A DNA stretch of 64,000 bases from Blastocladiella emersonii ATCC 22665 (lineage: Eukaryota; Fungi; Blastocladiomycota). The stretch covers positions 1,178,001 to 1,242,000 of the forward strand of contig JANHCV010000012.1 in the NCBI GenBank assembly GCA_025594325.1. Direction: 5' to 3'. Of this stretch, positions 5,096 to 55,990 are shown in pieces (within the stretch, counting starts at the first letter, position 1; every line of letters starts with the position of its first letter). The notes beneath the pieces are model-generated. The model saw only the letters and a program-made list of their open reading frames with translations. It searched no databases and was not told the origin of the DNA. The position numbers and the translations under genes were made by a program.

Positions 5096-5121
5096 TGCCG
5101 TATCCCTTAAGGGATACGGCA
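5096..5121. other. Perfect 26-bp terminal palindrome, left
   Basis: tgccgtatcccttaagggatacggca equals its own reverse complement. Confidence 0.98.
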
Positions 5122-5567
5122 TGGGCTGACCCACCACCACCCGGGCTGACCAATTGCTTACCCCAAGCGGTCGGCGGCAGTCACTCGGGCTAACCACATG
5201 ATTGGCAATGCGTTACCCCAAGTAATATATTGAGATTTGCCGAATGCCCCAGGGATACGGCATGGGGGCGGGTGGCAGGTGGGTCACGTGGATCATGTGC
5301 AGATGAACGGCGCGTGGGCACGGCTGCGAGTCGATCTGTGAGACAAGTCCAAGAGCAGATCCCTGAGCCCGTCCCTGACCAACCGCTCGGGCTGACCGTT
5401 GCTTACCCCGAGCGGTCGGCGGCGGCTGGCAAGCGCAGCGAGACGAAGAGCAGCGCAGCTGTGGCTACCCACTGACAGAGTTCCATGGTCTGGTCCCTGA
5501 CCTGACCCCCAAGCCCATCCCCAACCACCTGCCGCAAGCGGCTGCTATGAAGCCACTCACCGTAAAG

Positions 5568-5637
5568 GTTCCACTTTCATGGCATATTACGACAGAGTAT
5601 ATATATACACTACCCTTTTTTGCCATGAAAGTGGAAC
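5568..5637. promoter_or_regulatory. Candidate replication origin: 17-bp inverted repeats around a 36-bp spacer with a TATATATATA core
   Basis: gttccactttcatggca (5568-5584) and tgccatgaaagtggaac (5621-5637). Mirrored in the right TIR at about 20596-20665. The function is inferred. Confidence 0.45.
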
Positions 5638-5795
5638 TTTCAAAGACAAGAGGTCAGGGTATGGGGGGGAAGGTTGAGGACAAGGGAGCGTCTTAGCAGC
5701 ATCAATGTATTGGGCAGGACAGGGTCAGGCAAGGAGTGTCTTAGCAGGCAGCGTCTTAGCAGACAGGAAGGCAGCGTGGCAGGTCGTGGAGTGTC

Positions 5796-8700
5796 TTAGA
5801 GCTCGTTGTTGTCCTCGTTGTTGTCCTCGTCCTCGTCCATCTCCAGGACAAACGGGGCTGGATTGGCCAGGGGTGGGGTCCAGGTCTCGTACATGACAAA
5901 GTACAGAATGTCGTCTGTCCACTTCAGGTTACTGTACTTCTTGCCGCGTACTGAGACCCGGGGTTCGTCCTTGTCTGGCACAGCAAGGCACTTGTTAAAG
6001 TAAGTGCTGAGAAGTCTGTTTAGGACTGTTGCTGTGTCACACTTGTAATACCCAAGCTTCTTGAAGTACTTGTGGATGACTTCTTCAAACTTGGCGGGGA
6101 TGGTGGCCTGGATGTTGAACTCCTTGGACGTGTGGAGGTCCATGTTGTTGTGTTCCAGGAGCTTGTGCAGGACGTGGCCCTTGTCCTTGGTGTAAAAGTG
6201 CTGGATACGCTCCATGAAGCTCTCCGCGTTGTTGTCCCAGATGATCTTCATGTTGTCCATGCTCAGACCATTGAACTTGCGGATGAAGAAGGCCTTGCGG
6301 ACGGAGAGGGAGATGGTCCAGTCCGGGTCCTTGATGGTACCTTTGCAGTAGGCGCGCATGATCTCCTTGGACGGTAGCTGGACATTTGCCCATTCAAAAG
6401 ACCAGCCCAACATCATGACATCCTTAATCTCAGGGTGCGCCTTGTAGTAGTACTCGGGGGAGTCGTCCATGACAATGTTGGCGACCTTGCGGAAGGCGTC
6501 AAAGACCTTGAGGCAGAAGGTCACAGCGGCCATCTCGTTCTCAAGATCCGTGTTCTTGACAATAGCCCGGTGAAGTTTGCCAACCGAGTCCGAGTCAATG
6601 ACCTGTAACTTGTTCATGTACGCGCTGCGGCAACCATGGCTGATCATGAACACAATCTCGTTGTCAATGGGGTAGCGCTCGCGGTAGATTGCCTGGAAGA
6701 AGTTGCGGGCAGGGACCCAGGACTCGTAGCGCGCGTACACCTTGTGGAAGACGTATGGCTTCGAAAAGTTGACCCCCACAGTGATCTTGAGGTTGGCGAT
6801 GACTATACGGACCGTATCGTCGCCCCACACAGAGTCAGGGTCAATGAGTTCCTTGTCCTTGTGGTTGGGGCGGTCGCTGTGGTAGAGCTTGATCTGCTTG
6901 CCAATCTTCCACTTCTCCTTGGCAAAGACCAGCTCGAGGTACTTGCCAAAGGTCTGCACCGGCCACTTGGTTGACTTCTTGAATGGTCGTGGGATGAAGA
7001 GGTAGAGCTTCTTGTTGGCCTTGAGGTCGGCAATGATGTTGCTCTCCATGATGTCTTCGGCGGACTTCTCCTTGTCCTTGTTGTCGGTGATGAGGCTCAT
7101 CTTGCGCGGCTCAAACTTCTTGCCGAGCGTGTTCGTGATCACCTTGATCTTACCATGGAGTATGGTCTTGATGTTGTGCTCAACAGTAAAGGAGCGGAGG
7201 ACGTCCATGGTCAGGTTCGTGACAAACGCGTCCATGAAGATACCCTTGCTGCCCTTGTGCTCGCACAGCGTCTTGAAGGCCTTGAGGTTGGCCTCGAGGT
7301 TGTTGCGAATGGTGGTTGTGTGCAACTTGGCGTCCTGGAACATCTTGAGGACCGTCTTGGACTCGTCCACCACAACAATGTCGTAGGGCTCGGTCAAGTA
7401 GTGCAGCGAGCACGGCGAGACAATGAGTCGCTTGTGATCCCCCAGTGTCTTCTTGTCCTTGATGCTGCGGTAGTTGACAAAGCCAAGCTTCTGTTTGCGG
7501 GCTTGACCCTCAGTGTTGTGGGCCAGGGTGATGCGAGGTGTGATCCAGACCACTCGCGCGTCTGGGTACTTGGCAATGTAGTTGCAAACAGCGCCCGTCT
7601 TGTTGGAGCCCATGCCCATGGCCAGCACGTTGAACTTGGCCAGGGTAATGTCATCGCAGGACAGGAACTGGTTGGGGCTGGTCACGTCCACCAGTACCTC
7701 AAGCGACTGCTCAAACTTGGCCATGGCCTTGGACTTGAACGCGGCTGGGAACCGCTTGTAGAAGATGGCCTTGACAAACGTGTCCAGCACCTGGTAGTTG
7801 TTGTTGCTGGCAATCTTGTTCCATCGGCCCCAGTGCTTTTGCATGCGCTGAGCCGAGTTGTCCTGCTGCGACGTCCATGCCCAGAACTGGTCAAATGTGA
7901 CCCCTTTGCGCATGGCCCATGTCATGATCCGCCAGATCACGTTGTTGTGGAACGCGTTCTCGGGGCTGATGGGGATGTTGTGGAGGATCTCAAGTGGCGT
8001 GGCGTCGTAGTAGAAGAAGTCGGGGTCGATCTGCACGTCCTTGAACTCAGGGATGTCAAGGTCGTAGTCAAGGCGACCCGCGTGGCGCTTGGTCCGCGCT
8101 TCCTTGGCCTTGGCAGTCACAAACTCTTCAAAGGACAGGTCCGAGACCGACGCGCAGTTGGGGTCAAAGTCGCACTGGATCAAGTGCTTGGACAGGCGGT
8201 CCTTGTTACCCGAGATCCACACGCTGGGCGTCTTCTTGGGCTTGGACTGGTTGATGCACTTCATGAAGCAGTGCTTGCTGTACACGCTGGAGTCAAAGCC
8301 AAGCTTGACATGGTCGGGGTGGCTGCAGAACAGCTTCAGGAACGGCATGTCCTTGAGCGTGGCCGTGTAGTTGCTGAGGACAATGTGCCATGACTTTTTG
8401 AGGTCCGTCTCGTAGCTGCAGACCTGGAGGTTGGCGCCGGGGAACTGGGCCAGGATGACCTTCTTGATGACGTCCAGGGTCACGTCCTTGCGGTTGCCCG
8501 GGCAGTCAATGTCAAAGTAGACTTTGGACAGGCGCTCGGGGTGGACCATCTCCTGGATGCAGCGGTTCTTGTCGAGGAGCCCGGCCAGGTCAGCTGTCTT
8601 GACCTTGGCAAAGTAGTGCGCCGCCTTGGGTTGGCCGTGGTTGTTGACGCCCTTGTCAACAAGGCGCTTGATGACCGTCTTGTTGTCTTGCAGCTCGGAC

Positions 8701-8807
8701 AAGAGCGTGCGCTGAGGGCCCATGTTGCTGTTGCCACCATCCTTGCCATGGAACCACTTGAGACCAAAGGCGGTGCCATGTTTACTGGGAACCTGATTGC
8801 AGACCAT
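5796..8807 (-). CDS. AEP primase(-polymerase) / PriCT-like / UL9-like SF2 helicase fusion, about 1003 aa
   Basis: AEP motifs KVYFDID, KSWHIVL and FDSSVYS. Trp-rich PriCT-like segment. Helicase motifs AMGMGSNKT, WITPRITLA, VVVDES, FMDAF, ITVGVNF and FQAIYR. ATG 8807 chosen because the upstream part of the tracked ORF translates tandem repeats. Confidence 0.85.
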   Translation of the reverse strand: MVCNQVPSKHGTAFGLKWFHGKDGGNSNMGPQRTLLSELQDNKTVIKRLVDKGVNNHGQPKAAHYFAKVKTADLAGLLDKNRCIQEMVHPERLSKVYFDIDCPGNRKDVTLDVIKKVILAQFPGANLQVCSYETDLKKSWHIVLSNYTATLKDMPFLKLFCSHPDHVKLGFDSSVYSKHCFMKCINQSKPKKTPSVWISGNKDRLSKHLIQCDFDPNCASVSDLSFEEFVTAKAKEARTKRHAGRLDYDLDIPEFKDVQIDPDFFYYDATPLEILHNIPISPENAFHNNVIWRIMTWAMRKGVTFDQFWAWTSQQDNSAQRMQKHWGRWNKIASNNNYQVLDTFVKAIFYKRFPAAFKSKAMAKFEQSLEVLVDVTSPNQFLSCDDITLAKFNVLAMGMGSNKTGAVCNYIAKYPDARVVWITPRITLAHNTEGQARKQKLGFVNYRSIKDKKTLGDHKRLIVSPCSLHYLTEPYDIVVVDESKTVLKMFQDAKLHTTTIRNNLEANLKAFKTLCEHKGSKGIFMDAFVTNLTMDVLRSFTVEHNIKTILHGKIKVITNTLGKKFEPRKMSLITDNKDKEKSAEDIMESNIIADLKANKKLYLFIPRPFKKSTKWPVQTFGKYLELVFAKEKWKIGKQIKLYHSDRPNHKDKELIDPDSVWGDDTVRIVIANLKITVGVNFSKPYVFHKVYARYESWVPARNFFQAIYRERYPIDNEIVFMISHGCRSAYMNKLQVIDSDSVGKLHRAIVKNTDLENEMAAVTFCLKVFDAFRKVANIVMDDSPEYYYKAHPEIKDVMMLGWSFEWANVQLPSKEIMRAYCKGTIKDPDWTISLSVRKAFFIRKFNGLSMDNMKIIWDNNAESFMERIQHFYTKDKGHVLHKLLEHNNMDLHTSKEFNIQATIPAKFEEVIHKYFKKLGYYKCDTATVLNRLLSTYFNKCLAVPDKDEPRVSVRGKKYSNLKWTDDILYFVMYETWTPPLANPAPFVLEMDEDEDNNEDNNEL

Positions 8808-8906
8808 GTTGTTATGATGAGGTAACAGAAAGGGTGACAGGACAGGTGCGTTTAAACGCGCAGGATTTAGCGTTAATGACTGTGCCCTGGGAGCCCTTGT
8901 TGGCAT

Positions 8907-9044
8907 GGCCTGTCCTGTGCATTGTGTCGTTGGCCTGTCCTGTGCATTGTGTCGTTGTCCCGTCCTGGTTGGCCTGCCCTGTGCATCGTGTCCTTGTCCC
9001 GTCCTGTGCATCGTGTCCTTGTCCCGTCCTGTGCATCGTGTCCT
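8907..9044. repeat. About 25-bp tandem repeats upstream of the helicase gene
   Basis: About 5 copies of (ggcct/gtccc)gtcctgtgcat(t/c)gtgtc(g/c)tt. Confidence 0.85.
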
Positions 9045-9061
9045 GTGCAAGCTGGTCAAAG

Positions 9062-9379
9062 TCAATTGAGGGAGCACCCTTCTTCAAGGGGATGTCTGGC
9101 AGGAGCCGCTTCATTGACGTGCTGTTGTACAGCTGCTGTCTTCACAGGCGCCCCTTGGACGTGCTGCAACACTGCAAGACGGGCAATAACAACACGCAGC
9201 GTCTTCATGGCCTCTGCCAGAGACTTGTCATTGCCCAGCCATGCCTTGCGTGCAGCGTCCATGGTCAAGGCCTTCACCTTGTCAAAGTCAACCACCTTGC
9301 CTCTGCAGTAAGCAATGCTAAGCAGGAACTCATCAAGGGGGTTGGGGACATGGCTGTCGCTGTCACTGTCGTAGTACAT
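9062..9379 (-). CDS. Small hypothetical PLV protein, 105 aa
   Basis: ATG start and codon usage like the neighbouring viral genes. No motif. Confidence 0.55.
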   Translation of the reverse strand: MYYDSDSDSHVPNPLDEFLLSIAYCRGKVVDFDKVKALTMDAARKAWLGNDKSLAEAMKTLRVVIARLAVLQHVQGAPVKTAAVQQHVNEAAPARHPLEEGCSLN

Positions 9380-9467
9380 GGTGTCCTACCATTGACGCAC
9401 AATATATTTAACGATACCGCCAAACGCACTTGAGCAGTGACGCCTTCTTTTCTGGGGCTACCGTAAG

Positions 9468-10628
9468 ATGTCTCTCGAAGCACTCGTGTCCCAGGTGTCC
9501 AAGGTTGTTGCTCAGCATGTTGCCGCCAACGTAGTGCACCAAGTGCTTGATGGTATCAAGCCGCTGCTGGCGTCCTTTGATGAGCGGCTCAAGGGAGTCG
9601 AGACCAGCCTCGCCGCGCTGGCTGCAGTGTCACGTGACTGCAATCACAGTTCCAATCACACCCCCGCCAACGAGTCTGGCAAGCCCATGGACACTGATCC
9701 CCAGGTCAAGTACGCGCAGATGACCAAGGAATCCATCAAGGCGTGTGCCAGCGAGCCTGTGGTGAACAAGTACGGCCAAGTGTCCCAGCTCAGTGCCGAT
9801 GACCAGTCCAAGCTGTGTCACGTGCTGACTGCGTTCTGCAAGTCGGGGCTGGCCATTGAGGACGTCAACAGTGTGACAAAGGCTGTGGAGACGTACCGTG
9901 CAACCAAGGGCACAGACAAGGCACAGGGTCTGCAGGTTGAGACGCTCAAGGCGCTGGCCAAGTACTGCAAGTGGAATGGCAACAACGACCTTGCTGCACA
10001 GTACACGCAGGCCAAGAAGCAGGACGCTGAAGCTCACCTTGACGCGCGCAAGGCTGTGGAGACTGGTGCACTCCCAAGCCGTGAAGACTTGCTGGCTGCT
10101 GTTGTTGCTGCCAAGAACTGGGACACATACCAGGTGTCTGGCACAATGCGTGCTCTGCGTCTGTACCTCCAAGTCGTCTGTGCAAACTGCAGTGACCTTG
10201 CGTTCCTGACCACCAAGCCCAGTGACAAGTACCCAAGCTACAACCCCGAGACCAAGACGCTGGCCAGCCCTGTGTGCGTCAAGACAGATGGCCGTGGCTA
10301 CGGGTTCTCGCATGTCATTGCTGACCCCAAGGTTGCTGCTGCCCTTGAGCGCGTTATTGCCAAGCGTCTTGCTGATGGCCATGACCTGGTCTTCTACAAC
10401 CACAGCCTGGACAACGTCTGTGATGCTCTGGTCAACGCCAAGGTCCGCAAAGACTGGTCCAAGACCATTGCGCTGGCAGCACAGGACGTTGGCTTCAAGG
10501 GGTGCGGTGTCCAGCAGATCCGCCGCATCAGCACCAGTGAGAACAAGGACGCGTACGAGGCCGTGGCCAAGCATGCTGCTGAGATGGGTCACAGCGTACC
10601 TGTCGCCGTGGCCCACTACCTTGTCTGA
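9468..10628 (+). CDS. Tyrosine recombinase family protein, 386 aa
   Basis: C-terminal VKT ... QQIRRI ... AEMGHS ... HY fits the K, HxxR, H/W and Y catalytic positions. The first catalytic Arg is not evident (ANCSDL). Confidence 0.75.
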   Translation: MSLEALVSQVSKVVAQHVAANVVHQVLDGIKPLLASFDERLKGVETSLAALAAVSRDCNHSSNHTPANESGKPMDTDPQVKYAQMTKESIKACASEPVVNKYGQVSQLSADDQSKLCHVLTAFCKSGLAIEDVNSVTKAVETYRATKGTDKAQGLQVETLKALAKYCKWNGNNDLAAQYTQAKKQDAEAHLDARKAVETGALPSREDLLAAVVAAKNWDTYQVSGTMRALRLYLQVVCANCSDLAFLTTKPSDKYPSYNPETKTLASPVCVKTDGRGYGFSHVIADPKVAAALERVIAKRLADGHDLVFYNHSLDNVCDALVNAKVRKDWSKTIALAAQDVGFKGCGVQQIRRISTSENKDAYEAVAKHAAEMGHSVPVAVAHYLV

Positions 10629-10651
10629 CCTTGTTTTGTTGCCGTAATGTA

Positions 10652-11734
10652 ATGTATCCACACAAAGCACCACTCACAGACGCACAGCAAACGTTCCTCA
10701 GTGACCTGTACTACAAGCGCAGCCACGTAGGTGTTGGTATCTGTCGGCTCTTTGACATTGTGTCCAGAGAGAACACTGGTGACTGCGTGTACCGCGCACA
10801 GCTGGAGAGGTGGCTCAATGAGCAGTCGGTGTGGCAGTAGTACAAGCGTGCACCACAGAAGCGGCGCGACATCCGAAGCATCAACTCAACAAGCCCCAGT
10901 TGCAACTGGCAGCTGGACCTCATAGACATGGGCAAGAAAGGTACCTTCAACGGGTTCAGGTACATTCTTACCTGTGTAGACTTGGCAACTCGACGCGTGT
11001 TCCTGCGTCCAGTCAAGACCAAGGACCTGACACGGCAGGCATGGGACGACGTTGTCTCCAAGCATAACCTGACACCAGCAACCATCCAGACAGACAATGG
11101 CACAGAGTTCAATGGCATTGAAGCGGGGACAGGCGCAAAGCACATCAAAGGCAAGGCAGGTGTGCCATACAGTCAAGGTGTTGTTGAGCGTATGAACGGG
11201 ACCATTCGCAGGATGCTGACACCGTGGCTGTCCATTGAAGGCAACAACAACTGGCCAAAGTACCTTGAGACCATAGAGTCCGTGATCAACAGCAGCAAGT
11301 CCAGAGCTACAGGCAAGGCGCCCAATGACTTCCATGACATGCTGCGAGACGCTGCCAAGGACACACTCAAGGCCATCTGTGCTGCCAAGGGCAAGCCAGA
11401 GGGTGACCCACTCAGTGCGCTGCTCAAAGTTGGAACACAGGTACGTGTCCGTGAGCCGTACAAGACAGCCATGGAAGCAAAGGGAAAGCCAGTATGGACG
11501 TCCACAGTGCACCAAGTCACAGCTGTCCGCAAGGGCTCTGGTGTGAGCAACCCGTTGTACAAGGTTGGTGACTTGAAGGGCTTCTATCCACGCAGCGACG
11601 TCCAGCCAGTCACAGCGACCCAGGACCCGCCAAAAAGGCAGCGCGTAGGTCCAAGTCTTCCAAGGCTCCCTGCTGCGCGCACCCCAGTCACGCCAAGGGA
11701 GCCCTTGACCCGGGTCAGGCGCGTCCCAGTCTGA
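10652..11734 (+). pseudogene. Retroviral-type (rve) DDE integrase with an in-frame TAG at 10838-10840
   Basis: The frame is continuous across the stop: LSDLYY...WLNEQSVWQ*YKR...WQLDLIDM...IQTDNGTEF...QGVVERMNGTIR, then an SH3-like KVGTQVRV...W...YKV tail typical of Polinton/virophage integrases. Confidence 0.9.
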
Positions 11735-11760
11735 GTCCAAGAAAAGTGGGACCGCGGGCT

Positions 11761-13701
11761 TTAGAGCAGGGTCCAGTGGCTTTGAATGATGACCTGGCAG
11801 TCGTTGGCAACTGCGACTGACGGGATCCAGATGAAAGAGTAGCTCTTGGCCGCATCAAGGTACTCAATGCTCGAGAACTGAAGGAACTGGATGTTGCCTT
11901 CAGCGCGGCACCCGGTGACAAGCAACACTGCAATCATGCCCATCATATTGTACAACGCAAAGTTCACAGTGTGGGCTCCAGGGAGCGTGCCGTTTGCGTA
12001 ATAGCCCTTTGCATGGACGAGGTAGTAGCCACTGACAGGGGGTTTGACGCATCCATTGATCACAGACGTGAACGCGCCCGCCGTGGACTGGAATGCAAAG
12101 GTGGCCGGGCCCGTTGATGCTGTGCCGCCAATGATCTTGCCGCCTGTGGTCACTCCGTTTGTAGAGCGGTGCTTGGCCTGAGCGACATACCGGGTCGTGC
12201 CAGACCGCGAGTCAACGTACGCCTTGTTTGCCGCGTCGGTGCCTGCCACTGGAGCGAGGTCAAGGGTGAGCTGCCCTGTGAAGCGACCAGTGCCATTGAC
12301 GCGGAACCTTTCTGTGCCAAGCGTTGCCGAGCCCACGACCACATTGCTGCCACCTGCCACAAGGGAGACCCCGCCCGTGGTCGCAGACGCAATCTCAATG
12401 TTACCCGCTGCTGTGCATGCCAGGTTGCTTCGCAGTACGCCTGCCTGCTTAAAGTCGACGTACGTCAATGTATTGGCAGCCGAGTCAAAGACAAGGTTCG
12501 CGCTTGTGGCATTCCGGACCAGGACGTTGGGCACAGTGAGCTGCTTGCCCACACCAAGGCCACCTGCCACAGTGACTGCCCCAGTGGACGTCAATGTGCT
12601 GTCCACAGTACTGGCAAATGTAAAGACACTGCCAAGTCCAAGGGTGGACTGGGGGAGCGTCCCAGTGACAATGGCTCCGTTGACACTTGACACCTTGCTG
12701 GACATGTCAGGCAGTTGTGCAAGGTCAATGGTCCCAGACAACTTGGCAGCGTCTATCCCAGTGGCCAGCTTGGCATTGGTCAGTGAACCGTCTGCAATGC
12801 GTGCAGGGTCAAGCGTCCCTGTCAGCTTGGTGGCAGACACATCTGTGACCTTGGCGTTGGTGACTGACCCTGCTGCAAGGTGTGCTGTTCCCACGGATGA
12901 CACGTTGAGCTTTGCACCGTCTATACCAATGGCCAGCTTGGCGTTGGTGACAGCAGCGTCTGCAAGGGCAGCTGTGCTGACAGTCCCTGGAACCAGCTTG
13001 GACCTGGACACTGAGGCAACCTTGACATCTGTTATTGCAGTGTCTGCAAGTGCTGCTGTGCTGACAGTCCCTGGAACCAGCTTGGACCCGGACACTGAGG
13101 CAACCTTGGCGTCTGTCACTGAGGCGTCTGCAAGAGCAGGTGTTGAGACACTTCCTGCAACCAGCTTGGACCCAGACACTGAGACAACCTTGGCGTCTGT
13201 CACGGAGGTGTCTGCAAGAGCTGCTGTGTTGACAGTCCCCAGAACCAGCTTGGACCCGGACACTGAGGCAACCTTGGCGTCTGTCACAGAGCCATCTGCA
13301 ATGGACGTTGTCCCAAGCACAGGAAGGCTGGATGCACTGAGCACACCAGTGACCTTGGATGCTGACACAGTGTCCAGCTGTGCATCAACAAGCTTACCTG
13401 TGACCTGTGCAGCTGTGACACTCACAACCTTGTCTGCAGTGATGCTGGCTGGCAGGAGCTGGGCCATACTGATTGACTTGACATAGAGACTGCTTGGACC
13501 AACACCCAGTGTCTGGTCATCGACCTTGGCAGAGACAGTTGTCCCTGACACACTGAGTCCAGGCCCAGCGACAGGTGCACCAACTGTGGCATAGACAGCA
13601 CTGATGGCAGCATCAACATATGCCTTGGACACGCCTGAGACACCTGTGGCCGACACTGTTGGTGACACGTTGGTAGACACGTTGAATATATTCTTGACCA
13701 T
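11761..13701 (-). CDS. Fibre/spike-like virion protein with 28-aa repeats, about 646 aa
   Basis: Two KAYVD motifs and repeats of VSGSKLVxGTVSTAALADxSVTDAKVAS (84-bp period at about 12990-13300), with a beta-rich C-terminal domain. ATG 13701 has the shared upstream motif. Confidence 0.7.
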   Translation of the reverse strand: MVKNIFNVSTNVSPTVSATGVSGVSKAYVDAAISAVYATVGAPVAGPGLSVSGTTVSAKVDDQTLGVGPSSLYVKSISMAQLLPASITADKVVSVTAAQVTGKLVDAQLDTVSASKVTGVLSASSLPVLGTTSIADGSVTDAKVASVSGSKLVLGTVNTAALADTSVTDAKVVSVSGSKLVAGSVSTPALADASVTDAKVASVSGSKLVPGTVSTAALADTAITDVKVASVSRSKLVPGTVSTAALADAAVTNAKLAIGIDGAKLNVSSVGTAHLAAGSVTNAKVTDVSATKLTGTLDPARIADGSLTNAKLATGIDAAKLSGTIDLAQLPDMSSKVSSVNGAIVTGTLPQSTLGLGSVFTFASTVDSTLTSTGAVTVAGGLGVGKQLTVPNVLVRNATSANLVFDSAANTLTYVDFKQAGVLRSNLACTAAGNIEIASATTGGVSLVAGGSNVVVGSATLGTERFRVNGTGRFTGQLTLDLAPVAGTDAANKAYVDSRSGTTRYVAQAKHRSTNGVTTGGKIIGGTASTGPATFAFQSTAGAFTSVINGCVKPPVSGYYLVHAKGYYANGTLPGAHTVNFALYNMMGMIAVLLVTGCRAEGNIQFLQFSSIEYLDAAKSYSFIWIPSVAVANDCQVIIQSHWTLL

Positions 13702-13744
13702 GTTTAACTTAGTGCAAGAAACGAATTGCTCAGAGTACCAGGAC

Positions 13745-14017
13745 ATGTCCCTTGATGAGTGGCATGAACACCTTGCAGGGACCTTCCCTGTGCCATCCAA
13801 CTGGTACAACAAGAGCAACAAGGACAAGGCCAAGTGGCTACAGAAGAGAGACCGCAAGGCCAGTCGCTTTGTCCACGTTGACAGTGAGGCAGCATGGGCA
13901 GAGCGCGTCAAGATCCGCATCTACAAGGCACTCAACGCCAAGCGCAATGCACAACGTACAAAGTGTACCCTTGACGGTACAAAGTGTACCACAGACAGGT
14001 GCAAAGTGTACCCTTGA
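13745..14017 (+). CDS. Small basic hypothetical protein, about 90 aa
   Basis: MSLDEWHEHLAGTF..., divergent from the fibre gene. Its tail runs into a repeat array. Confidence 0.5.
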   Translation: MSLDEWHEHLAGTFPVPSNWYNKSNKDKAKWLQKRDRKASRFVHVDSEAAWAERVKIRIYKALNAKRNAQRTKCTLDGTKCTTDRCKVYP

Positions 14018-14054
14018 CGGTACAAAGTGTACCACGGACAGGTGCAAAGTGTAC
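13956..14054. repeat. Five phased copies of the dyad GT(A/G)CA-AAG-TGTAC
   Basis: Starts at 13956, 13977, 13999, 14020 and 14042, spaced 21, 22, 21 and 22 bp. Confidence 0.9.
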
Positions 14055-14093
14055 CTTGCCCGGGGTTTATTTTCGCTTCATACAGTAACCACC

Positions 14094-14702
14094 ATGACAC
14101 AAAGACCCATCACCAAGCAACTGGAAGACGTTGCAGCCAAGACAAACAGTCGTATCACTGCAGAGCGCATGCCTGGCCAGAGGATCAAGGCCACCATTGA
14201 TGGACGCGTGTACACTTTCCCCACAGCCAAGGAGTTCCTCACTGTGTGGGTCCTGTACATCCTTGCCTTTGACTACGCTGTCACACCAGAGAGCTATGCA
14301 GACGACTTTGAGGGCAAGCAATCAGGGATGCTGTTCCTGAGACACAATGGAGAGATCATGGGGCAAGACTCAGAGAGCGTCATGCAGCACATCTATGACA
14401 CCATCAAACAAGCAAGCACAAGCGTTAGCAGTGGCATCCAACGTGTTCCTGTTGCACAGGAAGGCACACCAGACTCTGACACAGGCGCAGACACACCAGA
14501 CGTCCCAAGCACACAAGACTCTGGCATAGGCTCACAGAGGCCACAGGACACCTTGGACAAACTTGCTGAGATGCTGGGAGAGCAGGGCAGCGTGTGCCTG
14601 ACCATCTCTTGCCCGTACCTGTCCGCCCAGTTGTCCCTGAAGAGTACCCTGTGGACGCTGGTGACTACGTTGGCCAGGACATCCCAGAGTACGCTGGCAT
14701 GA
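14094..14702 (+). CDS. Hypothetical PLV protein; possibly the 5' part of a frameshifted gene running to 15811
   Basis: ATG 14094 has the shared upstream motif. Its TGA overlaps the next ATG (ATGA, 14699-14702). Confidence 0.6.
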   Translation: MTQRPITKQLEDVAAKTNSRITAERMPGQRIKATIDGRVYTFPTAKEFLTVWVLYILAFDYAVTPESYADDFEGKQSGMLFLRHNGEIMGQDSESVMQHIYDTIKQASTSVSSGIQRVPVAQEGTPDSDTGADTPDVPSTQDSGIGSQRPQDTLDKLAEMLGEQGSVCLTISCPYLSAQLSLKSTLWTLVTTLARTSQSTLA

Positions 14703-15811
14703 TCCCTGGACGTTACTTGATCCAGAATGACAACAATGGCGGCAATGACCTTCCACCCCGGCTCGACGACGGCACACGCGACCTGGTTGTTGTCCCTCCC
14801 AGCTATGGACAGGACCTTCCACAGCGCGGCTCTGTGTACAATGACACACACGTACATCCCACCATGGACAAGTCTCGGATGATTGAAGGCTCCAAAGACA
14901 TCCAGGTCTGCAACCCAGAGCGGGCACTGACCACGACAGATGACATGGAGGTTGACATTGTCCAGAACTTTCAGCAGTTCAATCAATACGTGTACAGCAG
15001 CTTCCAGCAGGACAACACGCAGAACTACGACATGCGGCAGTTCATCACCCAGTACAAGAACAACTACTACGAGCAGAACGTGGACATGCAGCAGCAGATC
15101 CTGGTGCAGTACAACAGCGACCCCAACGTGATGGCTGCGCTGGACATCATTGCTGGCCAGTTCGCAAACAGTCAGGTCATGCAGTACCAGGCGTACATGG
15201 CCCTGATTAAGCAGTCCAAGAACGCCCAAGGACTGGCACTTGAGACCTTTGCCAACCTTGCAGCTAACATTGTGGACACACTGCGTGCAGAGCGCAACGC
15301 CTTTGTGTGACAGATTGATGCAGGGAACCGTGCACTGGTGTCTGAGATTGCAAGCGGCATGTCAACTGCCCTGACCAACCAGCAGGGACTCATTGGACAG
15401 CTTGCAACAGGTGTCCAGAGCGCCATCCAGGGACAGACAGAGTCCAATGCTGCTGTGAACAAGACACTCCAGGACCTGGGCAGCAAGCTGGACACAATGC
15501 AGCCGCCAGCACAGCCACAGGTCCTGGACACCAGCAACCTGGAGCAGCTCATCCGACAGCTTGCAGACGCGCCCAAGAACAATTCCGAGGGTAGTAGTAA
15601 GAAGACAGAGATGTTACTCGAACAGATCCTCAAGCGACTGGGCTACAAGAAGCCCCTGGACGCGAAGCTGTTCACAGAGAAGACGTCGGCCGGCAGTGGC
15701 CTGACAGCACCCCAGATCAAGCGTCACCAGAAGCTCCCTGAGCGACCAGTCAAGCAAGTGCGCAAAGTCCCCAAGCGCAGTGGCATTGTCACTGACCTTG
15801 GATGGGCGTGA
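14594..15811 (+). pseudogene. Q/N-rich hypothetical PLV protein with an in-frame TGA at 15308-15310
   Basis: ORFs 14594-15310 and 15338-15811 share a frame and read on (ERNAFV*QIDAGNRALVSE). A CGA>TGA change would explain the stop. Confidence 0.65.
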
Positions 15812-15836
15812 ACCTTTTGTCTTGGGTTACAGTAAG

Positions 15837-16637
15837 ATGTACGACATTGTGGCCATTGACAACGGCTTCACCAGGAACAACAACAACCAGCCTTTGCCCA
15901 TCCCCAAGCACCCCTTCACCATGAACGTCATTGGCGCCAAGGGTCAGGGCAAGTCAACACTGATCGCCAACCTTGTGTGCTTCCCGCAGTTCTACAAGGG
16001 ACGCTTTGACAACATCTGGGTCTTCAACCCCACCTTCCACGCTGACGACAAGTACGAGTACATTGCCTCACAGGCGATCCTGCAACCACCCAAGAAGCAG
16101 CACAATGTACTTGATCCACAGGAGCACAACCCAAACCGGCTCAAGGTGAAGCCATCGTGCATTGTCACGGACCCAGAGCTGTTCATCCCCACGCTGCTCA
16201 AGATGCGCAAAGACCTGACCAAGACCTTTGAAGACCAGGGCAAGAAGGCACTGCAGGACCAGCTGCTGATCATTGACGACGTGCTGGGCCTCAAGCTGCT
16301 GTCCCACAAGACGCTGACCAACTTCCTGTGCAACTCGCGACACCTCAAGAACAGCTGCATCATTGGCGTGCAGCGCTGGTGTGCTCTGCCCAAGACACTG
16401 CGCATCAACTGCAGCTACAGCGTTGTGCACCCCATCTACAACAAGACAGAGGTCAAGACACTGCACAAGGAGATTGGGTCGCAGTTTTCGCTCAAGGAGT
16501 TTGAGGTGATCATTGAACAGCTCTTTGACACCCGCTCAGAGGGCAACACCAAGCGACGCTTCCTTGGTGTCAACAACCAGAACAGTCCCAAGTACAGGCT
16601 GGTAGACAGCTTCAGCGAGTGGATCATCAAGGACTAA
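15837..16637 (+). CDS. A32/FtsK-HerA-type DNA packaging ATPase, 266 aa
   Basis: Walker A GAKGQGKST, Walker B LLIIDD, then NSRH and IIGVQ motifs. Directly upstream of the capsid gene. Confidence 0.92.
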   Translation: MYDIVAIDNGFTRNNNNQPLPIPKHPFTMNVIGAKGQGKSTLIANLVCFPQFYKGRFDNIWVFNPTFHADDKYEYIASQAILQPPKKQHNVLDPQEHNPNRLKVKPSCIVTDPELFIPTLLKMRKDLTKTFEDQGKKALQDQLLIIDDVLGLKLLSHKTLTNFLCNSRHLKNSCIIGVQRWCALPKTLRINCSYSVVHPIYNKTEVKTLHKEIGSQFSLKEFEVIIEQLFDTRSEGNTKRRFLGVNNQNSPKYRLVDSFSEWIIKD

Positions 16638-16680
16638 GCAACGCAGCGATTTTTTTTCTTGTGCTTCAGTAACACACGCC

Positions 16681-17901
16681 ATGTCTTCCACCAATGCCCA
16701 GTTCTCCCAGGTCCTGTCAAAGACTCTGCCACCAGAGATGACGTTTAACCTGCCCAAGGAGTCTGTGTACGCCGAGCGTCAGACTGTCCAGTTCACTGCA
16801 CAGGGCGGCCCCGAGTTTGCACCTGGCAACACTATCAGTGTCCTCCTGCCCCCGCACAACAACATGATGGACACCCACTGCACGTTCCTGCAGTTCAGTG
16901 CCAAGACTGCAGACGCCAACGTCACCTTCTGTGATGGCATCTTCAGCATCATTGACTGTGTGCGAGTCTACAGCGCGGGTGGAGCCCTGCTGGAAGAGCT
17001 TCCCTACTACAACCTGCATCAGCGCATTGAGGCTGACGTGACTGTCCCGCAGCACCTCAAGGACTCATGCCTCGGCGTGGCCCAGGGTTACTTTGCCACT
17101 GGGGCTGACCGCTTTGCTGTGTCATCTGGACTTCACCGGTACATGCTGCCCATCAAGTCTGCACTGCTGTCCAACCAGAAGCATCTGCCCATGAAGTACC
17201 TTGGTGGTATCCGCGTCGAGTTCACCCTGGCTCCTGGTGCAGATGCCTGTGTGGTCAAGAACAATGCCATCCCAAGCTACAGTGTCAAGGACGTGTGCAT
17301 TGTGTCTGACCTGATCAAGCTCAATGACCAGCAGATCGCCGTCATGGACGCTGCCTTCAAGAAGCAGGGTCTCAAGCTCTACGGCACAACGTACAACCAC
17401 CACTTCCTCAACTACTTGGTGCCCAACTCTACGCTCAACGTCTCTGACCGCAGTGCGTCACAAAAGGACGTGCTGGTGTCGTTCTGCAACAACGCAGTCC
17501 TCAATGACAATGCCAAGGACTTGTTCCTCCGTGCCAAGACCATTGCAACGTACCAGTTCAGCATTAGTGGCCGTCTCTTCCCCCAGAAGCCTGTCCGCTG
17601 TGACGACTACGCTTCAGAGGTCTTTGTAGAGCTGTCCAACGCCTTCCATGGCCATGTCATTGGTGCAGGCATGTCAGTGGACAAGTACAATGCGCCAGCT
17701 GAGGGGACCTTCTGCATTGGCCGCAACCTTGAGTCATCCCATACCATTGTCAGCGGCGACAAGTCTTGCAAGAGCCAGGCCGTGGACATGCAGATCATCC
17801 TCACCTCAAACACTGTCCCAAACCAGCGTGTTGACGCCTTTGTTGGTGTTGACATTGTGTACAAGTTCCTCCCAACTGGCAAGGTCAACCTCTACAAGTA
17901 A
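16681..17901 (+). CDS. Major capsid protein (double jelly-roll, PLV type), 406 aa
   Basis: Beta-rich pattern EFAPGNTISVLLP...D...FLQF...GIFSIIDCVRV...GGALLEELPYYNL and YQFSISGRLFPQKPV. Size and position between the ATPase and minor capsid fit. Confidence 0.85.
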   Translation: MSSTNAQFSQVLSKTLPPEMTFNLPKESVYAERQTVQFTAQGGPEFAPGNTISVLLPPHNNMMDTHCTFLQFSAKTADANVTFCDGIFSIIDCVRVYSAGGALLEELPYYNLHQRIEADVTVPQHLKDSCLGVAQGYFATGADRFAVSSGLHRYMLPIKSALLSNQKHLPMKYLGGIRVEFTLAPGADACVVKNNAIPSYSVKDVCIVSDLIKLNDQQIAVMDAAFKKQGLKLYGTTYNHHFLNYLVPNSTLNVSDRSASQKDVLVSFCNNAVLNDNAKDLFLRAKTIATYQFSISGRLFPQKPVRCDDYASEVFVELSNAFHGHVIGAGMSVDKYNAPAEGTFCIGRNLESSHTIVSGDKSCKSQAVDMQIILTSNTVPNQRVDAFVGVDIVYKFLPTGKVNLYK

Positions 17902-17940
17902 GCCCCGCGTGCATTCTTTTCTTGCGTACAGTTAAACGCA

Positions 17941-18207
17941 ATGATCTTCAGGAACCTGTGGACCAACTTCAGCAACGTGCTTGGCCAGGTAGGCGGCTTC
18001 GTGAACAAGCATCTCCCCACCGTGCTCAAGGGAGTCAAGACCGTGTCCAAGTTCTTTGAGCGCTCGCACAACCCTGCCGTGTCGTCTGTGGCACAGCTTG
18101 TGTCCAAGGGCGCTGACCTGGCCCAGGACATCCACACATGGTACAACCAGCCAACAAGCGAGATCTTTGAGACAGACAACAACGACACAGGCAGGGCAGT
18201 GCAATAA
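17941..18207 (+). CDS. Small protein with an N-terminal amphipathic helix (adenovirus protein VI-like candidate), 88 aa
   Basis: MIFRNLWTNFSNVLGQVGGFVNKHLPTVLKGVKTVSKFF, lying between the capsid genes. Confidence 0.65.
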   Translation: MIFRNLWTNFSNVLGQVGGFVNKHLPTVLKGVKTVSKFFERSHNPAVSSVAQLVSKGADLAQDIHTWYNQPTSEIFETDNNDTGRAVQ

Positions 18208-18228
18208 TATCTTCTAAGCCTTACTTAA

Positions 18229-18975
18229 ATGACTGGCTCCTACAAGACACTGACCATCTGCAGCCGCGACCTCAAGAACAGTGTGCTGTACCTCCTGCGG
18301 GCCGTGTCTGTGAGCGGCATCAAGGTCAACTCGGCGTACCTATGCAACAGCTGGCACACGGTCAACTCCAAGGCCAACAAGGTGTACCTGACACAGAGCC
18401 GTGGCAGTGTGACCTTCCCAGGGACCATCACTGTCCCTGATGGCAACTACACAGTTGAGACGTTCACGTCAACGCTCAAGAGCCTGCTCAACAACGCGCC
18501 GTCAAGTCTTCTGTGGCAGGGCACATGGGACGTGCAGGTTGACTCCACCACACAGAAGATGCGCATTGCCAATGACACCTGCGACTTCACTGTTGGGACA
18601 GGGGCCGCTGCGCTGAACACGCACATGGGCTTTGTTGGCAGCTACGGCTACAGCAAGGTCCAGTACGGGACGTCTCTGGTGAACATCTCTCCCATCAACC
18701 TGCTGCATGTGTACTCGCGCAACCTGGGCAGCCGCCTTGCGGACAACATGTTCTCGGCGTACCTGCAGGACAATGGTGTGCTGTGCAGCATCCATGTCAC
18801 ACAGCCGTTTGGGAGCTGGTTCGAGCACCGTCCACACATGAGCAACTACTTTCGCTTTGACGCACGAGGCACACCGCAGCTGATAGACTCCATTGACGTT
18901 GACGTGGTGGACAAGAACCTGCGCTCTGTTGACTTCCTGGGGCAACCCTTCTACATTGAGCTCGCGTTCATCTGA
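18229..18975 (+). CDS. Minor capsid (penton-like, single jelly-roll) protein, 248 aa
   Basis: LTICSRD...SAYLCNSWHTVNS...ITVPDGNYT...LKSLLN and a C-terminal IDSIDVDVVDKNLRSVDFLG...IELAF match the PLV minor capsid pattern. Confidence 0.8.
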   Translation: MTGSYKTLTICSRDLKNSVLYLLRAVSVSGIKVNSAYLCNSWHTVNSKANKVYLTQSRGSVTFPGTITVPDGNYTVETFTSTLKSLLNNAPSSLLWQGTWDVQVDSTTQKMRIANDTCDFTVGTGAAALNTHMGFVGSYGYSKVQYGTSLVNISPINLLHVYSRNLGSRLADNMFSAYLQDNGVLCSIHVTQPFGSWFEHRPHMSNYFRFDARGTPQLIDSIDVDVVDKNLRSVDFLGQPFYIELAFI

Positions 18976-19005
18976 GCTGCGACTTTTTTGCTGTGTACAT
19001 GTAAG

Positions 19006-19116
19006 ATGATCCTTGAGACACTTGTCCTTGCAGCCAACGTGGTCATCCTCGTGGCCAACCTTGCCATCATCAGGTACACCTCCAGCGCGCTCAAAGATAT
19101 TTGCGTTGTAGACTAA
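19006..19116 (+). CDS. 36-aa hydrophobic peptide with a single TM helix
   Basis: MILETLVLAANVVILVANLAIIRYTSSALKDICVVD, preceded by the tttt-N11-gtaagATG motif. Too short for the ORF track. Confidence 0.55.
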   Translation: MILETLVLAANVVILVANLAIIRYTSSALKDICVVD

Positions 19117-19172
19117 GCAACGCGTCAGCACAATGTGTTTATTTTCCCAACAACGTAGTAAGAGACAACACC

Positions 19173-19319
19173 ATGAACCAGGCTACTGGCTGCACTTTGT
19201 CACCACCCCATACACCTTCTCCAACCACACCAGGGCCAAAGTCCCTGAGCCAGTACACGGCCATCCGAGACGCAAGTCCACCCGGCGTCAAAGTTGTGTA
19301 CACCGTGCGCTTTGAGTAA
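19173..19319 (+). CDS. 48-aa Pro/Thr-rich peptide
   Basis: ATG preceded by the shared motif (tttt-N12-gtaag). No homology recognised. Confidence 0.4.
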   Translation: MNQATGCTLSPPHTPSPTTPGPKSLSQYTAIRDASPPGVKVVYTVRFE

Positions 19320-19794
19320 GCGCCCCTTCAAGTTAACAGTGAATGCTACCTTGAAGACTGAAGACCAAAGACTTAGTAGTTGTTACGGTGGTAAGTGTAC
19401 GTGTGATGACAGCATGAGTAAACTACCGTGGCCAGCAGGAGCCGGTTGTCATAGACCCACCAAGGTGGCTCCAAGTGGTTGCATGGCAGTTGAGGCAGGG
19501 GAGTGATGTCAAGGATGCAGCCGCGCATGGGTTACTGAAGGCTCAGAGAAGAAGCCAAAGACTTGTGCGTTGAACGCGCTTCCATCATCACCACCAAACA
19601 GTCCATGGCAACTGGTCACGTGACCACAGCCCCCCGCAATGACATAACGTAGCAATGGGTGCTCCGCCCCCATCCAGGAGCTGCTGGCCAGGCAGCCCCC
19701 AGACTGCCCCACACTGGAGTCTCCTTTCATGGTGGCCAACCACTAATCGGAGTTCCAGTGTGGAGCAGGGCATCATTGCCAAGTACTCATCAAC

Positions 19795-19978
19795 CACACA
19801 GTACACCGGCACAGACCAAAGCTCATCGACCACACAGTACACCGGCACACCAGGACACCAGGACACCAGGACACCAGGACACCAACACACCAGGACACCA
19901 GGACACCAACACACCAGGACACCAGGACACCAACACACCAGGACACCAGCACAGACCAAAGCTCATTGACCACACAGC
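19795..19978. repeat. 8-bp (caggacac/caacacac)n array flanked by about 28-bp direct repeats
   Basis: cacagaccaaagctcat(c/t)gaccacacag on both sides of the array. Confidence 0.9.
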
Positions 19979-20418
19979 GCCAACAGGATAAAGGAAGAAA
20001 GGTCCATGGTGCAACTGCACGGGTAGCAAGTCTGCGCAGCGCTCCATGTCCTGACACAAGCAACCGAGTCTATTGCCGTGCACAGCAGATAGCCCTGTAC
20101 GTCTTGTGCCGTACACTTTGACCACCCACAACGTTGGCCATGACACCCATACCAAAGGTCCTGTGAGTGCGTTGGGCTCATTGCAGCAAGATGGCCTATA
20201 CGCGCTCCAGCAGGGGCTTGAGGCAGTGAATCTGTGTCATGGCTTCCGTTGTGGGTGGTGGAGAGCAGGTCTGGGGAGGGGGGCGGTGGGGGGTTCTTAT
20301 AGGGCAAGGGATAGCGCTAATTCCCCAGCCACACGGTTGGTCAGTTCACCAGCCACGCGGCTCACTGGGCAAGCTGGACAACCACCCCGCAGCAGTCCCC
20401 AACCTTTGTCCTCGAGCT

Positions 20419-21137
20419 GGACAACGACGAGCTCTAAGACACTCCACGACCTGCCACGCTGCCTTCCTGTCTGCTAAGACGCTGCCTGCTAAGACGCTCC
20501 TTGCCTGACCCTGTCCTGCCCAATACATTGATGCTGCTAAGACGCTCCCTTGTCCTCGACCTTCCCCCCCGTACCCTGACCTCTTGTCTTTGAAAGTTCC
20601 ACTTTCATGGCAAAAAAGGGTAGTGTATATATATACTCTGTCATAATATGCCATGAAAGTGGAACCTTTACGGTGAGTGGCTTCATAGCAGCCGCTTGCG
20701 GCAGGTGGTTGGGGATGGGCTTGGGGGTCAGGTCAGGGACCAGACCATGGAACTCTGTCAGTGGGTAGCCGCAGCTGCGCTGCTCTTCGTCTCGCTGCGC
20801 TTGCCAGCCGCCGCCGACCGCTCGGGGTAAGCAATGGTCAGCCCGAGCGGTTGGTCAGGGACGGGCTCAGGGATCTGCTCTTGGACTTGTCTCGCAGATT
20901 GACTCGCAGCCGTGCCCACGCGCCATTCATCTGCACATGATCCATGTGACCCACCTGCCACCCGCCCCTGTGCCGTATCCCTGGGGCATTCGGCAAATCT
21001 CAATATATTACTTGGGGTAACGCATTGCCGATCACGTGGTTAGCCCGAGTGACTGCCGCTGACCGCTTGGGGTAAGCAATTGGTCAGCCCGGGTGGTGGT
21101 GGGTCAGCCCATGCCGTATCCCTTAAGGGATACGGCA
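20419..21137 (-). repeat. Right terminal inverted repeat (719 bp), ending in the 26-bp palindrome at 21112-21137
   Basis: Reverse complement of 5096-5814. Confidence 0.97.
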
Positions 21138-51900: not shown

Positions 51901-52132
51901 CGGTTCATGTGGGCGTGAGCGACGCGTGAGTGGCTCAGCTCCGACCTTGAGCGTGCACGCGCGCATGAGTTTCCGTCGCCGCTCGCGCCCCACATGGGGC
52001 CGACAGTCGCCGCGGCCGCCACCGCCACCGACGCCCAACCAACGCCCACCACGACGGCGAGTATAAAGCCGGCGGCACCTCGAGCTCGCCCTCGCGCTCT
52101 CTTGCTCGCTCGCCATCCGCGCGACAGTCACC

Positions 52133-55608: not shown

Positions 55609-55990
55609 CAGCGCGTGTTGCAGCGTGCCCTTTGCACATCCTTGTCCTTGATTTCTATTTGCATATACTTTCGTTTGGTTTCGTTACGGCATCTCGGTTC
55701 GCGCTCGTAGTTCCGGCGGAGGTGACCGAGAAGTGTGGCGCAACGCGTGCACCCGCGCTTGACGTCACTGGGCGCCGCCCACGTGTGTGGCTCAGCTGCC
55801 GACTTGCCTCTTCCATCCTTTGCGCGCGCGCGACTGCCCACGGCGCCCATGTGGGCCTCGAACAACGGCCTGTGCCGCCCGAGTTTGCATAGGCGTTGCG
55901 AGTCGCCCCGGCGTATAAAGGTGGCACTCGCCCCCGCTGCAGTTCCGCTCTCACTCGTGTTGTTAACGGATCATAGCACTCAAAGCAACC

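Follow-up and report, generated by a model that had tools for sequence, protein, structure and literature searches.

A probable eroded, integrated member of a multi-copy Polinton-like virus family, likely of Blastocladiella emersonii

The 16-kb element within the window (the whole 64-kb stretch of DNA analysed) is read from its sequence, with a probability of roughly 0.8, as an integrated Polinton-like virus (PLV), worn by mutation and belonging to a multi-copy family. Its rve integrase likely inserted it, and CpG methylation by the host likely keeps it silent. The first-pass annotation had called the element structurally complete, and its layout is; the term nevertheless overstates the case since this copy is damaged. 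It is probably not working, given a TAG in the integrase gene, an Arg to Cys replacement in the putative tyrosine recombinase (YR) and the broken 14094-15811 region.

Insertion site and gene content

As originally annotated, the element has TG...CA ends and a target-site duplication (TSD), which is the 5-bp ATGAC, and an 888-nt short-read contig (runs X1, X3), in which an end resembling the left flank joins the right flank with a single ATGAC between them, is an insertion-free homologue of the locus, with 43 differing letters over 320 aligned bases. Both element-flank junctions were also found in short-read contigs, with only 29-30 letters extending into the element, just below the 31 letters of the bridging rule for junction contigs. 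When the empty site was restored, 197 codons were open across the interrupted host ORF. The long terminal inverted repeats (TIRs) were confirmed (Table 1), GC content was 0.558 in the element versus 0.685 in the main host stretch, and among named homologues the nearest, with identities of up to 96%, were Blastocladiella emersonii gene models, in agreement with the zoosporic-fungus host proposed earlier. Insertion into a giant-virus region, an idea prompted by the lower GC of the flanks, was rejected on their host-like CpG content and lack of any Pfam match.

Table 1. Coordinates of the element, its genes and its sequence features in the window
Feature	Position	Strand	Remarks
Host ORF interrupted by insertion	4779..5095	+	resumes in frame past right TSD, to 21419
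Left TSD, ATGAC	5091..5095		one copy in insertion-free homologue
PLV element, integrated copy	5096..21137		16,042 bp
Left TIR	5096..5814	+	719 bp; 16 mismatches to right TIR, all transitions
Left terminal palindrome	5096..5121		perfect, 26 bp; 11-bp half-site recurs at 5252
Origin-like palindrome	5565..5640		76 bp; long arms, (AT)n centre; fold z -8.0 against shuffles
AEP-type primase and UL9-like SF2 origin-binding helicase fusion	5796..8807	-	about 1003 aa
105-aa ORF	9062..9379	-	no family in Pfam/PHROGs scans
Probable YR	9468..10628	+	386 aa; Cys241 (TGC at 10188) in place of the first catalytic Arg
rve integrase	10652..11734	+	360 codons with the DDE triad; TAG stop in frame at 10838-10840
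Fibre-like protein	11761..13701	-	about 646 aa; 28-aa repeats; open frame up to 13920
Three ORFs (202, 203, 150 aa)	14094..15811	+	frame change near 14577; TGA at 15308
A32-like packaging ATPase	15837..16637	+	266 aa; Pox_A32 E 1e-11
Double jelly-roll major capsid protein (MCP)	16681..17901	+	406 aa; structure prediction, structure search
88-aa protein	17941..18207	+	amphipathic N-terminal helix; conserved in sibling gene models
Minor capsid protein (penton)	18229..18975	+	248 aa; profile evidence, not folded
36-aa hydrophobic ORF	19006..19116	+	shared gene-start motif
8-bp tandem repeat	19811..19977		in apparently non-coding 1.3-kb stretch
Right TIR	20419..21137	-	719 bp; 16 mismatches to left TIR
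Origin-like palindrome, second copy	20593..20668		fold z -6.7 against shuffles
Right terminal palindrome	21112..21137		perfect, 26 bp; half-site recurs at 20971
Right TSD, ATGAC	21138..21142		one copy in insertion-free homologue

Each member of the morphogenetic module claimed for the element (MCP, minor capsid, ATPase and fibre) was backed by fold, profile or repeat and tail-fibre evidence, although neither MCP, penton nor YR was directly recognized by Pfam or PHROGs. The MCP was predicted to fold as the expected double jelly-roll (pLDDT 93.3, pTM 0.90; a single-sequence AF2 fold at pLDDT 36 was not informative), with a Foldseek match to PBCV-1 at E 1e-17 and structural Z scores of 28.9 for PBCV-1, 19.8 for Sputnik and 18.6 for mavirus, so that the modelled structure is nearer to NCLDV-type capsids than to those of mavirus or Sputnik. 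The penton profile matched genes adjoining the MCP in eight IMG/VR PLV loci (prob 96%), and the joint profile matched PBCV-1 P1v1 (E 1.7e-7) and adenovirus penton (E 0.039). The fibre-like protein matched tail fibres (E 1.7e-8). Adjacent 406/303-aa gene-model pairs considered as a second MCP proved to be the 88-aa ORF and penton joined by a predicted intron. The 88-aa product is possibly a membrane-penetrating virion protein.

The annotation had also proposed two integration genes, for which the evidence is unequal. The rve integrase was matched by Pfam (E 3e-7, slightly short of the curated cut-off) and by PDB structures of Ty3 and foamy-virus integrases. For the YR, no Pfam YR match was obtained in eight family members and no PDB match was found; a profile match was weak (prob 12%, E 0.0024), and the nearest ESM neighbours (0.94-0.95) fall in clusters of ordinary Preplasmiviricota proteins. 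Siblings carry R-K-(H)xxR-H/W-Y, which we take to be the catalytic motif set of the class, and keep the catalytic Arg in all six copies that cover it. Motifs and embedding neighbours together make a tyrosine recombinase the probable assignment. At position 10838 all aligned contig depth reads C and the T of the element occurs in no contig, so a single-site assembly error is possible there. Since TAG terminates none of the element genes, an alternative code with TAG as Gln was considered, and it was rejected as other copies read CAG at that codon in the contigs. Contigs of other copies likewise hold an extra base at 14577 and one base fewer at 15094, and the three ORFs of 14094-15811 are probably one broken gene judging from their frames and these copies. 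No Rfam match was obtained.

Relatives and a possible helper virus

The element has a double jelly-roll MCP, a penton (by profile), an A32 ATPase and a genome within 14-40 kb with TIRs and an integrase, as in PLVs (Aquintoviricetes in the broad sense; PMC7805220, bioRxiv 10.64898/2026.06.19.733378), which it also resembles in size, in the lack of a protease, in a helicase-primase replacing pPolB and in a variable integrase. Absence of pPolB and cysteine protease, as first annotated, held for 12 main ORFs and 19 leftover or antisense frames, the protease result being one of profile matching, so that a very divergent protease could still lie among the unassigned ORFs. PLVs usually carry an SF1 or SF3 helicase, whereas that of the element is SF2 (UL9-like), a type forming the minor eight-member cluster PC_0360, and the element differs further in having both rve and a probable YR. 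Maverick/Polintons (Polintoviricetes) share rve (interrupted here), TIRs, TSD and capsid module, but the element lacks pPolB and protease and has a 5-bp TSD. With respect to virophages (Virophaviricetes), the maturation protease was not found, virophage MCPs rank well below PBCV-1 in Z and no virophage Pfam match was obtained for the MCP; the modelled fold leans against a virophage-type MCP.

In a quick tree of 53 of the available rows the MCP grouped, among the proteins compared, only with unnamed metagenomic proteins, and its two best BFVD matches were also without name. Of the earlier claim of a distinct fungal lineage, an endogenous PLV whose MCP is a double jelly-roll and whose host is a zoosporic fungus is supported, but the novelty was overstated, since PLVs of fungi have been published before (PMC7805220; bioRxiv 10.64898/2026.06.19.733378), including those of Spizellomyces and Allomyces, and rve plus YR without pPolB is the layout of mid-GC EMALE virophages. 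PLVs are likewise integrated in Spizellomyces punctatus and Allomyces macrogynus (PMC7805220); in the available part of that source the A. macrogynus element carries genes for an MCP, an ATPase and a helicase, that of S. punctatus differs from ours in having pPolB and 154-bp TIRs, and neither multi-copy expansion nor CpG erosion is described for fungal PLVs. No Spizellomyces or Allomyces MCP was among the close MCP matches. No report of this Blastocladiella family was found in the literature searched, and it adds moderate novelty, dual rve and YR and terminal palindromes each having a precedent.

A tentative reading, at a little under even odds, is that the family acts as a virophage-like defence with a Mycodnaviridae-type helper, waking on infection, with rve serving entry into host chromosomes and YR into the giant-virus genome. 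The element encodes no polymerase, and upstream of most of its genes stands a T-tract-TAA motif that resembles viral late promoters, although it could just as well be a splice acceptor or host-type signal. Mid-GC EMALEs of Cafeteria (PMC8547959) share rve, YR, a long primase/helicase, TIRs, short TSDs and the lack of pPolB, but carry a virophage MCP and protease where the element has an NCLDV-nearer MCP and no protease was found. Giant viruses infect Blastocladiomycota, with 30 of 58 Allomyces isolates capsid-positive (PMC13533422), although Blastocladiella is absent from that study, and the closest helicases lie in Allomyces arbusculus (15.0-kb contig) and A. javanicus (14.6-kb contig). Against a helper, a TSV-group PLV is a nuclear lytic virus.

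Replication gene, termini and proposed life cycle

The only long replication ORF of the element encodes an OBP-type helicase. Sibling primase-helicases matched Pfam Herpes_ori_bp (E down to 3.5e-16), the profile matched herpes OBP structures (E 8e-18), and the primase part carries DxD and SxH motifs, which we take as marks of the AEP type. The open frame extends up to 9011. An A. macrogynus helicase shares 45% identity with that of the element. Among 28 environmental helicase loci, eight distinct contigs carried MCP (E below 1e-49), ATPase and penton, and this helicase type therefore accompanies the MCP superfamily in environmental PLVs as well; no integrase match was obtained in any of the 28 loci, which are partial. 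A fungal helicase alignment recovered one 2.2-kb locus only from metagenomes.

The two terminal 26-bp palindromes are the longest perfect palindromes of the window (next longest 18 bp) and have a TA-rich core of 6 bp. Each may represent an opened hairpin end, and the AT-centred palindrome in each TIR is a candidate replication origin. In the proposed cycle an intact family member would be copied out of the chromosome, and the primase-helicase would open the AT-centred palindromes and prime synthesis. As the element encodes no polymerase, one would be supplied by the host nucleus or by a helper giant virus. The free genome may be linear with hairpin ends, a proposal we put just short of an even chance. 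The A32 ATPase would then pack it into an icosahedral capsid that bears fibres and matures without a protease, and rve would mediate re-entry into a chromosome.

A precedent for terminal palindromes that go with RVE and a replication type other than pPolB comes from the endogenous virophages of Halocafeteria and from PLV subtype 4 (bioRxiv 10.64898/2026.07.28.741278), where palindromes lie at TIR ends beside the TSD and a hairpin model like that suggested here was proposed; rve plus YR was reported there in virophages 'but not PLVs', whereas the element combines them with a PLV-type capsid in a fungus. Some family copies end ...GACA or ...AACA, and the hairpin model needs the inner palindrome arm to co-vary with these variants. 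No strand-switching joint at the element terminus was present in the short-read contigs, which lose rare forms. The palindrome core occurred in three IMG/VR contigs without capsid, penton or YR match, taken as chance. AT-rich environmental PLVs also show palindromes and were excluded from the argument.

It is unlikely that the YR is a telomere resolvase cutting the 6-bp core in replicated junctions to form hairpin ends, with rve cutting 13 bp past the axis for integration. Protelomerases do cut 6 bp apart within a palindrome (PMC3558466), such a site apparently serves a eukaryotic giant virus (PMC13236599), and ResT/TelK are among the nearest named ESM clusters of the YR (0.93), but Phage_integrase ranks equally high and the nearest clusters overall are the ordinary ones noted above. 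Cutting integrated palindromes would moreover break the chromosome unless host ends were rejoined, and Halocafeteria palindromes follow RVE and replication type, not YR (bioRxiv 10.64898/2026.07.28.741278).

Copy family, CpG-type decay and implications

At least 18 MCP-bearing copies were counted, namely the element copy and 17 MCP gene accessions named Blastocladiella emersonii on nine scaffolds, with 11 of one cluster's 26 members outside the matches listed. They fall into three subfamilies with 79-87% identity between them. Contigs at the terminus show other flanks, with a terminal depth tens of times flank depth, a summed depth that does not equal copy number. Most MCP frames have kept their full length, and all three subfamilies retain MCP, penton and ATPase, which argues against spread solely as an intranuclear transposon with capsid genes as passengers; many chromosomal copies would suit such a reading, as would the lack of a close IMG/VR relative for MCP, ATPase and YR, but it appears improbable. 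Two close metagenomic MCPs used as IMG/VR queries gave no match, and metagenome scans with P0177 gave no match.

Of the TIR mismatches 14 lie in a CpG, versus 23% of C/G sites held by CpG, and the other two are a TG/CA pair. The CpG observed/expected ratio was 0.60 in the element versus 1.17-1.30 in host DNA, and 107 of 128 non-diagnostic MCP differences were of CpG-decay type (15 scored copies, P0006 left out), with 14 in the element copy and two in the cleanest; one sibling differs from the majority at two places only. It is quite improbable that the element copy is intact and owes part of its apparent damage to misassembly of a repeat family: several element letters, including 10838, are absent from aligned contigs, but the element-wide CpG depletion far exceeds a few errors, siblings differ widely in decay load and X1 contigs share the transition bias (417 of 605 places). 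In the favoured reading, of a mutation-worn PLV copy, the host would methylate the copies and deamination would then kill them one by one. In Allomyces, one giant-virus insert lacked CpG methylation and another was methylated in part (PMC13533422), a pattern that counts against this step. On these data the element copy is likely unable to integrate or recombine by itself, and less-worn siblings could complement it in trans.

To our knowledge almost no double jelly-roll DNA viruses were known in fungi before. Fungi were omitted from protist-wide PLV surveys (PMC10120064). The combination of these copies in a culturable model fungus and active giant viruses in a neighbouring genus offers one test system, in which virophage-like defence in a fungus, terminal palindromes of pPolB-less PLVs as hairpin ends (proposed in bioRxiv 10.64898/2026.07.28.741278) and CpG methylation silencing and eroding PLVs are testable. 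Graded decay among the copies provides a built-in clock of viral endogenisation. The fullest version, a fungal virophage-like element with hairpin ends, a YR acting as resolvase, a herpes-like origin and dozens of methylated copies woken by Mycodnaviridae, is a long shot; if true, the virophage-like hairpin reading would mean an inducible fungal antiviral system and a new mode of PLV replication.

Integration site, copies and neighbouring features

The 16,042 bp element begins with TG and ends with CA, is flanked on either side by ATGAC and carries terminal inverted repeats (TIRs) of 719 bp with 16 mismatches between them, confirming the target site duplication, TG...CA ends and long TIRs called in the first-pass annotation. 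Read across the empty site, the host ORF that starts at 4779 remains open over 197 codons. Both element/host junctions were present in contigs from four public short-read runs (X1–X4), as was an 888-nt contig, ~87% alike, in which a left-flank-like end is joined via a single ATGAC to the right flank; these runs represent one sample from one study and are possibly the source of the window, so the contig evidence is not independent. The depth of this insertion-free contig equals that of the occupied site, and the second version of the host gene that it represents is either a paralogue or a divergent haplotype. The interrupted gene itself was without a Pfam match.

No other pieces of the element were found within the 64-kb window, and contigs with other flanks were also seen at the element terminus. 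Besides this copy there are at least 17 accessions bearing the major capsid protein (MCP), on nine scaffolds, a lower bound given that one 26-member cluster has 11 members beyond those listed. These copies sort into three subfamilies. The close homologues that carry a name are without exception Blastocladiella emersonii gene models at NCBI, and this species belongs to the Blastocladiomycota. Short tandem repeats occupy three intergenic or gene-start positions, and at one of them repeat length differs among copies.

Elsewhere in the window there are retrotransposon remains with gag-like frames upstream, a DUF6570 ORF extending past the window end (DUF6570 is Helitron-associated) and several related short genes resembling a tandem host family, among them one that matches ricin-B-lectin weakly (E 0.015).

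Features of the element and the surrounding window
Feature	Position (nt)	Strand	Match
Retrotransposon remains	1-2800	minus	RVT_1, E 5e-8
Related short genes	3062-3385, 52000-57500		
Interrupted host gene	4044-5095 + 21143-22297		
Host ORF across empty site (start)	4779		
Element	5096-21137		
Helicase	5796-8807	minus	
Tandem repeats	8881-9058, 13956-14041, 19811-19977		
Repeat length variation (near)	8970-9044		
Tyrosine recombinase (probable)	9468-10628		
rve integrase	10652-11734		
Fibre	11761-13701	minus	
Packaging ATPase	15837-16637		Pox_A32
MCP	16681-17901		
Penton	18229-18975		
T-tract-TAA motif sites	9423-9467, 14049-14093, 15792-15836, 16636-16680, 17896-17940, 18961-19005		
Variable right end	21130-21137		
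DUF6570 ORF	63298-64000		E 5e-23

The capsid module and its relatives

For the 406-aa MCP, a profile search collected 1,558 proteins at E up to 0.001; modelling with 129 relatives drawn from it gave a predicted double jelly-roll fold at pLDDT 93.3, the structural check proposed for this protein. Its best structural matches were the capsids of PBCV-1, faustovirus and ASFV (Z 28.9-26.3), ahead of the virophage capsids of Sputnik (Z 19.8) and mavirus (Z 18.6). ESM Atlas placed the protein with DJR-like and Capsid_N clusters, weakly and under its threshold for recognition. The minor capsid assignment also held: over its whole length, the 248-aa ORF can be aligned with MCP-adjoining genes in eight IMG/VR loci, and a joint profile of these sequences matches PBCV-1 P1v1 and an adenovirus penton. 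A Pox_A32 match bears out the packaging ATPase, and repeats together with tail-fibre matches support the fibre. These data identify a genuine endogenous Polinton-like virus (PLV), as originally called.

A quick tree built from 53 MCPs, none of them from a named PLV, placed representatives of the three subfamilies on one branch (SH-aLRT 100) inside a 12-member group (SH-aLRT 99). The other nine members are unnamed proteins, eight of which were looked up and came from Logan, ENA or JGI/IMG. Outside the family, the helicase is closest to sequences from Allomyces arbusculus, A. javanicus and A. macrogynus (44-50%), and Borealophlyctis gave a partial match; no Allomyces MCP was among the close MCP matches. 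Two Allomyces helicase homologues, P0186 and P0187, lie on contigs of 14,956 bp and 14,600 bp, the size of a whole PLV. Among 28 IMG/VR helicase loci, eight distinct contigs have a strong MCP-profile match plus ATPase and penton, their MCPs falling on a different branch of the quick tree from that of the element.

The novelty initially claimed was too generous, as PMC7805220 already describes a PLV that is complete in Spizellomyces punctatus and, from A. macrogynus, genes for MCP, ATPase and helicase. Chytrid PLV ATPases are mentioned at two places in bioRxiv 10.64898/2026.06.19.733378, fungi are left out of PMC10120064, and the passages of PMC13533422 on Allomyces giant viruses do not name Blastocladiella. 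Literature searches, with subscription journals outside their coverage, returned no report of Blastocladiella with a Polinton or with endogenous viral and capsid terms, and the family in this host is apparently unreported.

Replication, integration and gene-start signals

The element combines modules in an uncommon mix. The 1003-aa ORF has DxD and SxH motifs at its N-terminus, which we take to be those of an AEP, plus an SF2 helicase. Herpes_ori_bp was matched by 7 of the 12 homologues scanned, and the helicase profile matches herpes origin-binding protein structures. Each TIR contains a palindrome of 76 bp centred on (AT)n, a layout reminiscent of herpes oriS, and this palindrome is a candidate replication origin. 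Neither a DNA polymerase B of the protein-primed type (pPolB) nor a protease was found in searches of the element ORFs and frames, in agreement with the first-pass annotation. In contrast, the S. punctatus PLV has pPolB according to PMC7805220, where a PrimPol-OBP cluster is also catalogued.

The two termini of the element each form a perfect palindrome of 26 bp, and no longer perfect palindrome occurs in the 64-kb window; such termini would fit hairpin ends that were opened at 13 nt from the tip. Halocafeteria elements likewise have terminal palindromes with non-pPolB replication and RVE, and hairpin priming has been proposed for them (bioRxiv 10.64898/2026.07.28.741278). The right end reads ...GGCA here and ...GACA or ...AACA in other copies. 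The 18-bp core of the terminal palindrome was also seen, in a context common to all, in three IMG/VR contigs (L029:454, L030:10001 and L031:7635), which gave no capsid, penton or tyrosine recombinase (YR) match.

An rve integrase and a YR had both been assigned. The former stands, its 360-codon gene encoding a DDE triad, although it is interrupted by TAG at codon 63. The YR is probable: for the 386-aa ORF, motifs of YR type are present in siblings (the other copies) and the neighbours by embedding are Preplasmiviricota proteins, with a weak profile match. By analogy with Cafeteria virophage elements (EMALEs), for which PMC8547959 reports such a proposal, the YR may be a second integrase targeting giant-virus DNA. 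That it makes the hairpin ends is unlikely.

A T-rich tract, about 10 nt and then TAA directly ahead of ATG was defined post hoc as a pattern with six matches, all at predicted starts, against a background of 0.11 per element and one match across 48 kb of host DNA. Less strict versions of it stand before the genes for helicase, integrase, fibre and penton. The motif may be a viral promoter or, because CAG precedes TAA in four cases, a splice acceptor.

Decay of this copy

The element had been described as structurally complete, which overstates its condition given the integrase stop, replacement of YR Arg241 by Cys (codon at 10188) through a single CpG change, and a CpG observed/expected ratio of 0.60 (depleted) versus 1.17-1.30 (not depleted) in host DNA. 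The 16 TIR mismatches are transitions without exception: 14 fall within CpG and two form a TG/CA pair, with CpG making up 23% of C/G sites. Single CpG changes account for 16 of 36 differences from sibling majorities in the MCP and, for the helicase, 16 of 26, the remainder being largely between subfamilies. With 14 differences (range 2-16 across 15 scored copies), this copy ranks with the more heavily worn. A C-to-T change outside CpG, at 10838, accounts for the integrase stop; all contig depth there is C, indicating that siblings are open at this position and leaving the letter of this copy unconfirmed by short reads. The pattern of substitutions suggests host CpG methylation followed by deamination as the likely cause of decay.

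The element is of interest mainly because its family lets virophage-like defence, the proposed hairpin ends and silencing through methylation be tested in a culturable fungus.
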